Assembly (NCBI RefSeq): GCF_037143375.1
Contig: NZ_JBAWYV010000002.1
Span: 15,064 to 79,063, forward strand
Source of the DNA: Rhodoferax sp.
Lineage (GTDB): Bacteria; Pseudomonadota; Gammaproteobacteria; Burkholderiales; Burkholderiaceae_C
Direction of reading: 5' to 3'
Length of the DNA stretch: 64,000 nucleotides
Under the pieces are notes generated by a model. It saw nothing but the letters and a program-made list of their open reading frames with translations. It had not been told where the DNA came from and did not search any database. A program made the translations under genes and the position numbers. This document shows, piece by piece, positions 1-29,372 of the stretch (position 1 is its first letter; each line of letters starts with the position of its first letter).

Positions 1-173
1 ACGGCGGCCTGAGAAAAGGTGCGTATCGGCACCATGGGAATGTGTGCTGTAAATGCAAAAGGAATGCACAAAAAAATAGGAATCCAGACCTTCAGGAACA
101 CCGCCTCAAGTCCATGGCGGTCAACATAGTAGGCCGCCACGAACAAGGCCAGGAAGACCACATAGGCTGTCAT
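1..173 (-). CDS. hypothetical membrane protein, N-terminal fragment running off the left edge
   Basis: ATG at 173..171 overlaps the TGA stop (172..170) of the upstream REC-PP2C-kinase gene (ATGA). My translation MTAYVVFLALFVAAYYVDRHGLEAVFLKVWIPIFLCIPFAFTAHIPMVPIRTFSQAA stays open to position 1 and has two hydrophobic stretches. It is absent from the ORF track because it is truncated. Confidence 0.3.
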   Translation of the reverse strand, partial: MTAYVVFLALFVAAYYVDRHGLEAVFLKVWIPIFLCIPFAFTAHIPMVPIRTFSQAA

Positions 174-1819
174 CTAGGCAAAGTATAAAAACCAAACCCC
201 ATACGATTAACCCCAGCCGTGTGCGAATAGTTGAAGGTGTCCGCCAGAGCATTGATGATGTGCAAGCCAAAACCGCCTTCACGGTTGAGGTCAAAAGGCT
301 CTTCAAGCAACAGCGATTCGCGCACCGGATCAAAGTAAGGCCCCAGTGCTTCAAGCAGTACCCAGACCGTGCCATCAAGGTGACTGATCTGCACTTCAAT
401 CGACGAGTTGATGATCTCGCTGCTAGAGTGGCGAACCGTGTTCGTAAAGGCTTCAACCGTCACCAGCGTGATCTTGTCGGCGAGGTCTTCGGTCAACTTT
501 TGCTCTCGGGCAAAGTCACCGATAAAACCACGTAACTCAGCGATGTGGCAGAGCTGGCGGGCCAAGCGCAGGCGATGCGGCAATATGCCCGCATCCGGCA
601 CCTTGGCCACCACCAATGTCAGGTCATCGGTCAGGGCTTGATCCCCGATAAACCTGAGAACCGAGGCATACACCATTTCCACCAGCGCGTTGGCACCCCA
701 TGGGGATTGGTGGTAGGGCGCCAGCTCCTGCATCAGGCGATCTTCACCATAGGCCTCACCTTGCGAGTTCTTAGCCTCGGACAGGCCATCGGAATAGCAG
801 ATCACGGCGGCACCGGCAGCAATGTCACATTGCTGTTCTATATATAACTCCTCAGCAAGTACGCCCAGAGGAAGATTGGGGGATCCGAACAAACGGGTTT
901 GACCACCATTCAGAACGATCAAGGGCGGGTGTCCGCAACATACCACCGTGAGCGTACCTGCGGCCTTGTCCAGGCGGGCATAAAGGAATGTGACAAAACT
1001 CTCAAGCTCAATCAGCTTGGGTGTCAGCGTTCTATGGATAGCATTGACAATCTCACCCACCGAAAACCGCTCAGCGTTGTGGGTGGTCAGGCGATTGGAA
1101 ATCTGTCGCTGCACCTGCAACTTGACATCAGCACCCAGAATGGCTGCCAGTGGCCCCTTACCCATGACGTCACCGATGATGATGTCCACCGAGTCCGAGT
1201 ACACCGAAATGATTTCTATAAAGTCACCATTGATCCCCTGCGCCGCCTGTGCCCGCGCCGAAGTGAAGACGCCGCCAGGTGCCAACGGAATAGAGCCGAA
1301 CAGCAAAGTCTTCTGAATGCGCGCGCTGTACTCAAACTCCAAGGCAATGCGTTCCTCCAGTAGCTGTTGCTTATGCAGCACGCTGTCCAGCAGTTTCAAA
1401 TTCAGGTTCTGCAGCGAAATCACGCGCTGAAAATTACGAATCTTGTAGCGCAAAAATCCGATGTTAAGCGGCTTGGTCATGTAGTCGTCTGCACCCAGCT
1501 CCAACGCACGCATAATCTGCGCCTCGGATTGGTGGCCCGAGGTCACGATGACCGGCACCCAACGCACCGCCTCGCTTCGGCGAAGCGATTCCAGAACCAT
1601 ATACCCATCCCCGTCTTGCATGCCAATGTCCAGCAGAATCAGGTCAAAATTATTGTTTTCGAGGATTTGTAGGGCGTCATTCCCGCTCACAGCCATCGTG
1701 ATGTGGTAACCCATCTCCACCAGCGGTCGGCTCAGTATCAGGCGAGCCAGGGGTTCATCATCTACCAGCAAGATGCGCAAGACGCCCTCAGACAGCGGGT
1801 CAGCCGCTAATGAGCTCAT
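170..1819 (-). CDS. receiver - PP2C/SpoIIE phosphatase - RsbW-type serine kinase (HsbR-like partner-switching regulator)
   Basis: 549-aa ORF. N-terminal receiver (ILLVDDEP, LILLDIGMQDGDG). Central SpoIIE/PP2C block (GDFIEII, IIGDVMGKGPLAA, YSDGLSE). C-terminal RsbW/SpoIIAB-type HATPase (VEAFTNTVRHS N-box, REGGFGLHII G-box). Its ATG overlaps the stop of the upstream kinase (ATGA at 1816-1819). Confidence 0.85.
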   Translation of the reverse strand: MSSLAADPLSEGVLRILLVDDEPLARLILSRPLVEMGYHITMAVSGNDALQILENNNFDLILLDIGMQDGDGYMVLESLRRSEAVRWVPVIVTSGHQSEAQIMRALELGADDYMTKPLNIGFLRYKIRNFQRVISLQNLNLKLLDSVLHKQQLLEERIALEFEYSARIQKTLLFGSIPLAPGGVFTSARAQAAQGINGDFIEIISVYSDSVDIIIGDVMGKGPLAAILGADVKLQVQRQISNRLTTHNAERFSVGEIVNAIHRTLTPKLIELESFVTFLYARLDKAAGTLTVVCCGHPPLIVLNGGQTRLFGSPNLPLGVLAEELYIEQQCDIAAGAAVICYSDGLSEAKNSQGEAYGEDRLMQELAPYHQSPWGANALVEMVYASVLRFIGDQALTDDLTLVVAKVPDAGILPHRLRLARQLCHIAELRGFIGDFAREQKLTEDLADKITLVTVEAFTNTVRHSSSEIINSSIEVQISHLDGTVWVLLEALGPYFDPVRESLLLEEPFDLNREGGFGLHIINALADTFNYSHTAGVNRMGFGFYTLPR

Positions 1820-28900: not shown

Positions 28901-29372
28901 AGACCTGACGCAATTGCGCCTGATTGCCATAAAGCGGCAAAGCAGCACCGAAGTCGGTCAATGTGTTGAGAACTACTTGCCCGCTCGCGTCGCTGAGCAC
29001 CATATGCCCGGCTATTTGGACCCTTGCTAAGGCGCTAACGGCATTGTTTTGAAACAGGGCCAGTTTGTTGTCCCTTAGCGTTTGGTCCTGAGCGAGCATC
29101 AAAGCCGTCGTTTCGAGTTGCGAAAACTTCTGATCCAGCACCAGACTGAGGGCATGGGCCATCTGGACGGATGACTGTTCAAGTTGCTTGCGTTCGACTT
29201 GAATGTCCTTGATAAAAAGGAAAATGGTCCCGACCATGCCGGGGAGCATGCAACCGAGTACCAGTCCCATGAGCAGGGTGCGCACAGTGGGCAGGCGATG
29301 ACCACGCATGGCGTGACTGCGAGTCTGTGGGGGCAGGCGCGCCCGTTCGTAAATCTGGCGAATGAAATTCAT
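25950..29372 (-). CDS. hybrid sensor histidine kinase (periplasmic Cache-like sensor, HAMP, PAS, HisKA, HATPase, REC, C-terminal extension)
   Basis: 1140-aa ORF. Two TM helices flank a ~260-aa extracytoplasmic domain. H-box [13 protein letters not shown]. ATPase DSGIGI and [13 protein letters not shown]. Receiver [11 protein letters not shown]...[15 protein letters not shown]. The C-terminal ~100 aa are Hpt-sized, but I could not see an HxxKG motif. Confidence 0.9.

Follow-up and report, generated by a model that had tools for sequence, protein, structure and literature searches.

We analysed a 64,000-nt window (the whole stretch of DNA under study) of Rhodoferax sp., an uncultured organism represented by a metagenome-assembled genome. 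The window holds two pairs of signalling genes, each made of a hybrid histidine kinase and a response regulator that joins a receiver (REC) domain to a PP2C-type phosphatase, together with genes for exopolysaccharide (EPS) synthesis. Of particular interest is the second of these regulators, in which the phosphatase is followed by a stalk and a GGDEF domain: from its sequence this single polypeptide is predicted to be phosphoserine phosphatase and diguanylate cyclase at once (henceforth the fusion). A preliminary description had proposed that the two pairs set both the phosphorylation of a single STAS protein and the level of cyclic di-GMP (c-di-GMP), with EPS production as the output. Our gene list is based on an open reading frame (ORF) map and Pfam scans, with NCBIfam models as a second profile set; the genes, domains and motifs listed earlier were all recovered with the same coordinates. 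The observation is thus confirmed, and its interpretation is partly supported by the sequence comparisons that follow. These comparisons rest on loci rather than whole genomes; L- and P-numbers denote the related loci, contigs and metagenome proteins that were used. The proteins at the centre of the analysis are as follows.

23908..25953, (-) strand: the REC-PP2C-stalk-GGDEF fusion, 681 aa (Pfam Response_reg, SpoIIE and GGDEF)
25950..29372, (-) strand: HK1, a membrane hybrid histidine kinase with dCache, PAS, PAS, HisKA, HATPase_c, REC and a 95-aa helical tail (Pfam)
170..1819, (-) strand: HsbR-like response regulator, REC, PP2C (SpoIIE) and RsbW-type HATPase_c_2, 549 aa (Pfam)
1816..5994, (-) strand: HK2, a cytoplasmic hybrid histidine kinase with five PAS domains, HisKA, HATPase_c, REC, REC and Hpt (Pfam)
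23459..23797, (-) strand: single-domain STAS protein, 112 aa (Pfam STAS, E 2e-17, 63 bits; NCBIfam anti-sigma factor antagonist)
L008:10114-11208, (-) strand, about 7 kb to the left of window position 1: WecG/TagA-type glycosyltransferase with a C-terminal STAS domain, 364 aa (Pfam; henceforth WecG-STAS)

The fusion and its kinase

The fusion looks catalytically intact, as judged by its sequence motifs. The REC domain has D55, T85 and K107, all metal-binding Asp residues of the PP2C domain are present (D190, D208, D339 and D393/394), and the GGDEF motif at 575-579 is unbroken, with an I-site (R566-E-I-D569) that lies five residues upstream and aligns with the RAID of PleD. That the protein ends in a coiled coil or stalk followed by an intact GGDEF domain with an RxxD I-site, as first described, is therefore confirmed. 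In an AlphaFold2 model (built on a 29-sequence alignment; mean predicted local distance difference test score, pLDDT, 80) the REC domain is followed by a linker helix (111-164), the PP2C domain, a disordered segment (406-448) and a 51-residue helix (447-497) that runs straight into the GGDEF domain. Foldseek searches with this model returned P. aeruginosa RssB (REC-PP2C, TMt 0.70), the PP2C domain of SiaA (TMt 0.83) and SiaD, the last aligned over 272 columns including its stalk. The NCBIfam model for SiaD (NF038266) matches residues 441-668 with 135 bits, far under its cut-off of 290, and the fusion accordingly resembles SiaD but is not a SiaD equivalog.

The HK1 gene is translationally coupled to the fusion gene by an ATGA at 25950-25953, with an alternative open ATG at 25968; the HK2 and HsbR-like ORFs overlap in the same manner at 1816-1819. 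Both overlaps had been noted before and both are present. ATGA overlaps are ordinary features of operons and have no significance by themselves. Residues 603-1140 of HK1 (transmitter, REC and tail) are 67–71% identical to the fusion-paired kinases at L001:3287-7771 and L004:5871-10004. The sensor is swapped among these kinases, being dCache in the window and 7TMR-DISMED2/7TM in L001 and L004.

Proteins of this architecture form ∼50 clusters at 90% identity, all from Comamonadaceae-type metagenomes and some with an inserted PAS domain. Among 1.84 billion 50%-identity representatives just one other aligns with the fusion from end to end. A scan of GTDB species representatives found PP2C and GGDEF in one ORF only in L011 among the 80 loci listed, the remainder being REC-GGDEF or REC-PP2C proteins that matched through generic peptide patterns; a scan of metagenome contigs for the fusion returned L098 as the sole true member of the family, the other matches being generic. 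Together these searches indicate that the fusion is rare and confined to a narrow clade of Comamonadaceae. They also bear out the earlier point that phosphatase and cyclase are here one polypeptide, unlike in the HsbR pathway: by Pfam and database searches the combination is real and rare. Two further metagenome proteins, P0252 and P0260 (689 and 699 aa), are 38% identical to the fusion and have the order REC-PP2C-REC-GGDEF; one REC-PP2C-PAS-PAS-GGDEF protein was also found among the 50%-identity representatives. Judged by these sequences PP2C-GGDEF fusions have arisen more than once, with P0252/P0260 a second, independent architecture. A literature search for PP2C-GGDEF or SpoIIE-GGDEF fusions found none, a weak negative given that it matched exact wording only.

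The REC-PP2C half of the fusion is 31% identical to the HsbR-like protein of the window and 55–64% identical to other REC-PP2C-RsbW and REC-PP2C proteins. Given the latter values, the fusion probably derives from a STAS-directed phosphatase whose C-terminal domain was exchanged. That it is the locus's own HsbR-like protein with the kinase domain replaced was considered and rejected: the HsbR-like protein of a distant relative, L092, is 39% identical (full length) to 170-1819 and 32.5% identical to the fusion, and between the two paralogues of the window identity is just 31%.

The EPS island, the HsbR-like protein and the STAS proteins

The region is most of a Wzx/Wzy-type exopolysaccharide island. 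Its other features are listed below.

1..173, (-) strand: 5′ end of the gene for Wzy_C (EPS polymerase), which runs off the left edge (sequence read directly)
6072..7538, (-) strand, the same direction as HK2: hexapeptide-repeat transferase-like protein, 488 aa (Pfam)
7575..8396, (-) strand: Bac_transf priming sugar transferase (Pfam, E 3e-63); likely true start at 8273, giving 232 aa
8291..10198, (+) strand: REC-PAS-HisKA-HATPase_c kinase (REC-HK), the first gene of a third relay (Pfam)
10185..10580, (+) strand: single-domain CheY-like receiver (Pfam), 62% identical to its counterpart in L092
10564..10863, (+) strand: stand-alone Hpt protein, HptB analogue (Pfam Hpt, 28.3 bits against a cut-off of 24.6; His in LHRLAG)
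10934..21388, (-) strand: EPS biosynthesis and export block (Pfam), colinear with L094
21965..22651, (-) strand: putative c-di-GMP receptor with a C-terminal PilZ domain, 228 aa (Pfam PilZ, E 3.9e-4)
22779..23462, (+) strand: OmpR/PhoB-type response regulator (Pfam, NCBIfam)

The block at 10934-21388 encodes a glycosyltransferase (GT) of type GT4, a Wzx-type flippase, GT2, GT1, a hexapeptide transferase, GT2, a Poly_export/SLBB (Wza-like) protein, another GT and a 651-aa protein. For the last of these (19433-21388, (-) strand) a weak C-terminal CBM6 match was the only Pfam result and NCBIfam gave none; it may be a polysaccharide-modifying or -degrading enzyme, and a 651-aa gene stands at the same position in an 89%-identical relative. 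The hexapeptide transferase at 6072-7538 is found beside Bac_transf also in L007, L092, L095, L096 and L178. Taken at their longest, the divergent Bac_transf and REC-HK ORFs share 106 nt (8273-8396 region); with Bac_transf starting at 8273, as in the gene call on the identical contig (L007, corresponding to window 7575-8273), the divergent intergenic region is only ∼17 nt.

A lookup of the HsbR-like protein recovered contigs that match the left end of the window at 99.5–99.9% identity, and on these the island continues. After the HsbR-like gene come Wzy_C, a Wzc-like protein, GT2, a hexapeptide transferase, an acyltransferase and, outermost, WecG-STAS. The complete Wzy_C gene (461 aa) is seen in L007/L008, 99.7% identical to the window; the Wzc-like match (a 722-aa AAA_31/TIGR01007-like protein) scores below its cut-off. 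With this extension the Wzx/Wzy-dependent set is complete: Bac_transf, Polysacc_synt_3 and Poly_export/SLBB in the window, Wzy_C and the Wzc-like protein to its left. The order of the EPS-cluster operon is Bac_transf, hexapeptide transferase, HK2, HsbR-like, Wzy, and an ATGA at 170-173, where the ATG of wzy overlaps the stop codon of the HsbR-like gene, provides a third translational coupling, this one from a regulator to a biosynthetic gene. Because the EPS genes continue to the left of position 1, the HK2/HsbR-like pair lies inside the cluster and does not flank it; the impression that the RsbW-type kinase sits on the other flank of the EPS genes was an artefact of the window edge.

The HsbR-like protein has the REC-PP2C-RsbW architecture of HsbR, as originally proposed, with all three Pfam matches passing their cut-offs (Response_reg 1.5e-25, SpoIIE 6.5e-37, HATPase_c_2 1.7e-15). 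Its REC domain has D20/D21, D64 and K116, the kinase domain an N-box (E456..N460..H464) and a G2 box (GGFGL), and the PP2C domain every Asp motif (GD199F, GD217VMGKG, SD344G and D398D). This last point changes the picture of opposing kinase and phosphatase paralogues: since the HsbR-like protein keeps an intact PP2C domain of its own, the sequences suggest a bifunctional switch of the HsbR/SypE type plus an extra phosphatase-cyclase, and not a kinase set against a phosphatase. The protein is 77% identical to its counterpart in L091, a locus with the same left block as the window (also 77% identical), and the pairing with HK2, whose Hpt motif is HALKG, recurs in L091 and L007. No STAS gene adjoins the HsbR-like gene in the window; the gene downstream is wzy, and STAS is 22 kb away.

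The free STAS protein scores 66 bits against NCBIfam TIGR00377 (cut-off 53). Its phospho-motif, D55-S56-S57-G-L-G, with Ser56 the candidate site, is as first described, and all 121 orthologues keep DSSGLG unchanged. Across the whole window a six-frame phmmer scan detected neither a second STAS domain nor a second RsbW-type domain. The statement that only one STAS protein is present thus holds inside the window; it fails for the locus, given that WecG-STAS is encoded just beyond the left edge on the 99.7%-identical contigs. WecG-STAS combines a Glyco_tran_WecG domain (residues 64-232, E 2e-43) with a STAS/STAS_2 domain (278-361, E 2e-10), and belongs to a large family: the WecG domain is found in all 120 of the 90%-identity clusters listed, down to 47% identity, and the STAS domain in all but three of them. 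The Asp-Ser phospho-motif is kept, D319 in 106 of 110 homologues and S320 in 102 (∼93%). Thirteen STAS matches share contigs with WecG-STAS matches, as judged from equal sizes of the longest contig. A STAS domain with a conserved Asp-Ser motif, fused to a glycosyltransferase, points to direct control of the enzyme, and WecG-STAS is the most likely direct output of the switch.

The OmpR-type regulator and the REC-HK/CheY/Hpt relay previously placed between the two pairs are present by Pfam. The STAS and OmpR genes converge, with 4–8 nt shared at their 3′ ends (window 23459-23462, L094:10336-10339, L095:10332-10339). The stand-alone Hpt protein is a candidate donor for the REC domains of both REC-PP2C proteins; orthologues of REC-HK occur in L092 (45% identity), L004, L095, L096 and L178, and in L004 and L178 the STAS gene directly follows the Hpt gene of the relay. 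The protein formerly called a YcgR-like PilZ receptor has both c-di-GMP-binding motifs (RGSDR at 115-119 and NISRGG at 146-151, for RxxxR and (D/N)xSxxG), but the comparison with YcgR does not extend to the N-terminus: within residues 1-130 neither Pfam nor NCBIfam gave any match, a YcgR N-terminal (PilZN) domain included, at E-values up to 10. L095 has a 52%-identical orthologue, and the P0002 contig a 227-aa gene in the corresponding place.

Related loci and the proposed control of the island

Comparison of related loci reveals a conserved core of STAS, OmpR, WecG-STAS, REC-HK/CheY/Hpt and EPS genes. The STAS-OmpR pair is kept in L092, L094, L095, L096/97 and the P0002 contig (STAS identity 66–94%), and in L094, L095 and L096-97 (STAS 94%, 88% and 74% identical) it stands at the border of a colinear EPS locus, the genes upstream of STAS being unrelated. 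In the 88%-identical case, a Rhodoferax metagenome-assembled genome, a DDE_Tnp_1 transposase fragment (L095:9242-9808) lies directly upstream of STAS at the position that the fusion gene has in the window, which hints at a rearrangement hot spot. L178 (STAS 79%) has the operon-like order REC-HK, CheY, Hpt, STAS, WecG-STAS. The link between these regulators and EPS, drawn at the outset, proves strong: STAS orthologues stand at or inside this type of EPS locus in every context seen.

Informative for the relation of the STAS protein to the HsbR-like protein is L092, where identities are 66% for STAS, 65% for OmpR, 62% for CheY, 50% for WecG-STAS and 39% for the HsbR-like protein over its full length. 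Here the order is OmpR (forward), STAS (reverse), HsbR-like (reverse), WecG-STAS (forward), further on a Wzc-like gene, then Hpt, CheY and REC-HK (all reverse) and Bac_transf (forward); the STAS orthologue immediately follows the HsbR-like orthologue, the canonical hsbR-hsbA arrangement, and the two are divergent from WecG-STAS. Because their orthologues adjoin in so distant a relative, the STAS and HsbR-like proteins of the window are plausibly cognate in spite of the 22 kb between them, and the idea of a split STAS/kinase pair gains comparative support from a locus with the same OmpR gene and relay. The suppliers of PP2C and kinase activity differ by lineage, being an HsbR-like protein, a Cache-PAS-PP2C sensor phosphatase (L004-6) or the GGDEF fusion. 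The sensor phosphatase is a 1000-aa Cache-PAS-PAS-PP2C protein (L005:13928-16513, also in L004 and L006, 78%-identical relatives) whose gene comes after STAS and a gene for a solute-binding protein.

Our preferred reading, to which we assign a probability of about one half (0.5), is that post-translational control of the island is built around phosphorylation of STAS domains on serine, and that the fusion is a lineage-specific second phosphatase that is also a cyclase. In HsbR and SypE the state of the REC domain selects the activity, kinase if it is unphosphorylated and phosphatase if it is phosphorylated (PMC4517449, PMC5085249). By analogy, HK2 would control the REC domain of the HsbR-like protein, either through its own REC-REC-Hpt or through the stand-alone Hpt protein; in the unphosphorylated state the HsbR-like protein would act as a kinase on STAS (Ser56) and probably on WecG-STAS (Ser320), and in the REC-phosphorylated state it would dephosphorylate them. 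Unphosphorylated STAS would permit polymer synthesis, directly at the WecG enzyme (as reported for All4160, a STAS-glycosyltransferase of Anabaena) or by way of a partner of the free STAS protein. The lineage-specific addition would be a second conserved kinase/regulator pair placed directly upstream of STAS: HK1, with its periplasmic dCache domain, would drive the fusion as a separately sensed phosphatase of phosphorylated STAS that also makes c-di-GMP. Dimerisation of its stalk, driven by REC, could switch on the cyclase, perhaps with help from STAS bound to the stalk (as SiaC binds SiaD), and the c-di-GMP produced may be read by the PilZ candidate encoded between STAS/OmpR and the EPS genes. 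The net result would be control of EPS synthesis at the level of the enzyme. Within this scheme the link from the fusion to STAS is put forward as a hypothesis.

Several observations weigh against the scheme. The RsbW-type domain of the HsbR-like protein has no obvious G1-box Asp, an Ala aligning with the Asp of B. subtilis RsbW (6m36), and every proteobacterial homologue examined has the same Ala; since the Asp is not evident, we can only infer that the domain is competent as a kinase. HK1 has no Hpt domain, and a search of its 95-aa tail found no Hpt His motif. The PilZ match of 21.2 bits falls under the Pfam cut-off of 22.5. The STAS domain of WecG-STAS is just 27% identical to the free STAS protein, and All4160 differs from WecG-STAS in having an N-terminal STAS domain followed by a transmembrane segment, not a C-terminal STAS domain on a soluble WecG/TagA-type enzyme. 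Lastly, the adjacency of fusion and STAS is specific to this lineage: 75%-identical relatives (L001-L003) hold the HK/fusion pair with no STAS gene within 10 kb, and the STAS orthologues at 94%, 88% and 74% identity have no fusion as neighbour.

This last pair of observations also speaks for an alternative, which we consider possible although less probable than the reading just given: HK1 and the fusion would form an autonomous two-component c-di-GMP module beside the EPS island, the PP2C domain having another substrate or a regulatory or dimerisation role, and STAS being served by the HsbR-like protein alone. In all contexts the fusion is preceded by an overlapping hybrid kinase, and the pair is conserved as a unit while its neighbours vary (ExoI and RelA in L001-L003); STAS-OmpR pairs do without it, one with the transposase fragment in its place. 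The gap of 110 bp between the fusion and STAS genes and the swapped sensor, typical of mobile signalling cassettes, fit the same view. In the gene-neighbourhood check, which the preliminary description had called for, the fusion directly adjoins STAS only in the window and one relative at 89% identity; in the 78%-identical relatives its neighbour is a reduced form of the window's locus, STAS lying at a distance of 6 kb. Against this alternative, two of three independent contexts have the pair next to that STAS-bearing locus. The full set of PP2C metal-binding Asp motifs argues against a pseudo-enzyme, the nearest relatives of the REC-PP2C half are HsbR-type proteins, whose substrates are STAS proteins, and the stretch from the fusion gene to STAS has no predicted terminator-like site.

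A bolder version of our preferred reading makes the fusion a self-contained device equivalent to SiaA plus SiaD: the PP2C domain would generate unphosphorylated STAS, which would dock on the fusion's own stalk and switch on the cyclase in cis, and the same STAS-type phospho-code would operate on the WecG glycosyltransferase. We regard this as a long shot. Were it so, one serine state, set by two sensors, would gate both a second messenger and the committed enzyme of a single exopolysaccharide, and the fusion would be a natural "Rosetta stone" by which partner-switch phosphatases and STAS-regulated cyclases are seen to work as one complex.

It is likewise improbable that the locus is a classical sigma-factor partner switch, with the RsbW-type domain sequestering a sigma or anti-sigma factor, unphosphorylated STAS releasing it and the EPS genes under transcriptional and not direct enzymatic control. 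The HsbR architecture and a STAS protein of the anti-sigma-antagonist type would suit such a scheme, and in P. aeruginosa HsbA and HsbR act on FlgM and RpoS (PMC5085249, PMC6482189). Against this, neither the island nor the related loci showed a sigma or anti-sigma gene, bar an unrelated extracytoplasmic function (ECF) pair at the edge of L097; the glycosyltransferase-fused STAS domain points elsewhere; and SypA and All4160 work without a known sigma factor (PMC4517449, bioRxiv 10.64898/2026.04.08.717354).

The strict form of the original model, in which a sole STAS target is phosphorylated by 170-1819 and dephosphorylated by 23908-25953 while two flanking sensor kinases set phosphorylated STAS and c-di-GMP in parallel, draws on the single STAS protein and single RsbW-type domain of the window, the adjacent STAS and HsbR-like genes of L092 and the fusion gene directly upstream of STAS in the window and the 89%-identical relative, but it is unlikely and, as a model of opposing paralogues on one STAS protein, too simple: the HsbR-like protein, with its complete PP2C domain, is probably bifunctional, its gene is inside the EPS cluster, a second STAS domain (WecG-STAS) belongs to the same locus, and the core STAS/EPS locus is widespread without the fusion.

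Scans for other regulatory elements added little. Rfam returned no riboswitch and no other RNA family across the window, and between 21.8 and 30.1 kb promoter and terminator matches were no more frequent than in shuffled sequence. To the right of ∼31 kb the window contains housekeeping genes such as guaA, guaB and infB. Two other neighbouring genes are recorded here: one for a 306-aa protein (30065-30985, (-) strand; ∼0.7 kb beyond the HK1 start) that couples a class III adenylate/guanylate cyclase to a phospho-Thr-binding FHA domain, and one for a 407-aa protein (31996-33219, (-) strand) in which a cytidine/tRNA-adenosine-type deaminase (MafB19-deam / dCMP_cyt_deam_1) is fused to an alpha/beta-hydrolase.

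Comparison with known systems

Partner-switching modules are increasingly found to control biofilm polysaccharides, mostly with unidentified targets, as in the case of SypA. The two natural fusions described here name likely targets: a STAS domain joined to a WecG glycosyltransferase, in a large, conserved proteobacterial family, and a partner-switch phosphatase joined to a stalked diguanylate cyclase. If the preferred reading is true, direct control of EPS enzymes by STAS phosphorylation, reported in 2026 for cyanobacteria, would reach into the Betaproteobacteria, and the fusions would offer a compact system for studying the joint action of serine phosphorylation, phosphorelays and c-di-GMP on a single polymer. 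The hosts are Comamonadaceae of freshwater and groundwater, where EPS affects aggregation and biofilm formation.

By architecture the closest match is the HptB-HsbR-HsbA-HsbD pathway of P. aeruginosa (PMC5085249, PMC6482189), which shares the REC-PP2C-RsbW protein, a single STAS protein with its Ser, input from Hpt and hybrid kinases, and a cyclase tied to STAS. HsbA, in common with SiaC and BgrV, regulates a diguanylate cyclase by its own phosphorylation state (PMC5085249, PMC8457831). The differences are of placement and of fusion: the STAS gene of the window is not adjacent to the HsbR-like gene (that arrangement being found in L092); the HsbR pathway belongs to a flagellar cluster, whereas the module of the window is inside an EPS operon with no FlgM or sigma partner evident; and HsbD is a separate HAMP-GGDEF protein, whereas the cyclase of the window is fused to a second REC-PP2C protein.

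SiaABCD, also of P. aeruginosa, has a PP2C phosphatase, a Ser/Thr kinase, a STAS-fold partner and a long-stalked diguanylate cyclase, and the unphosphorylated partner binds the stalk and activates the cyclase (PMC7647112, PMC8457831). There, however, phosphatase and cyclase are separate proteins under HAMP/membrane control, in contrast to one REC-controlled polypeptide; SiaC is a DUF1987 protein with Thr68, whereas the partner in the window is a true Pfam STAS protein with Ser; and the kinase of the window is a domain of the distant HsbR-like protein.

The syp locus of Vibrio fischeri has a bifunctional kinase/phosphatase regulator (SypE) and a single STAS protein (SypA) inside a polysaccharide locus, together with hybrid sensor kinases; it is unphosphorylated SypA that is active and favours biofilm, acting on a downstream target other than a sigma factor (PMC4517449, PMC10120452). 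The domain order is RsbW-REC-PP2C in SypE and REC-PP2C-RsbW in the window, the taxonomic class differs, and a GGDEF fusion, a STAS-glycosyltransferase fusion and a PilZ protein are all absent from the syp system.

In HenR/All4160/Alr3423 of Anabaena PCC 7120 a REC-SpoIIE phosphatase and a Ser kinase set the phosphorylation of a STAS-glycosyltransferase, so that the enzyme is controlled directly (bioRxiv 10.64898/2026.04.08.717354; Mol Microbiol 2026, PMC13555669); All4160 is inhibited by phosphorylation and needs the REC-PP2C protein HenR (bioRxiv 10.64898/2026.04.08.717354). The locus of the window is proteobacterial and would add a free STAS protein, a bifunctional HsbR-type enzyme and a c-di-GMP branch. 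Finally, in BgrR/BgrSTUWV of Sinorhizobium meliloti, as far as the system is summarised in later papers (Baena et al. 2019 as cited in PMC8457831, PMC13438883), a PP2C phosphatase, a kinase and the STAS protein BgrV control a cyclase, and c-di-GMP activates the synthesis of one exopolysaccharide. In those accounts all components are separate proteins, no REC or phosphorelay input and no STAS-glycosyltransferase fusion is mentioned, and the glucan synthase itself binds c-di-GMP, whereas the candidate receptor in the window is a separate PilZ protein.

The preliminary description held that no characterised system has this wiring. Set beside these systems the statement stands for the PP2C-GGDEF fusion only; a partner switch acting through a cyclase on EPS (BgrR/BgrSTUWV), a partner switch acting on a cyclase (SiaABCD, HsbA-HsbD), a partner switch within an EPS locus (SypE/SypA) and a REC-PP2C protein acting on a STAS-glycosyltransferase (HenR/All4160) have each been described. 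By analogy, the logic of the locus would be that of SypE/SypA, the logic from phosphatase through STAS to cyclase that of SiaABCD and BgrR/BgrSTUWV, and the logic of the STAS-glycosyltransferase that of HenR/All4160. None of the HsbR, Syp, Sia, Bgr and HenR systems has phosphatase and cyclase in one polypeptide, and none has an island that unites a PilZ protein with both a free STAS protein and a STAS-glycosyltransferase fusion.

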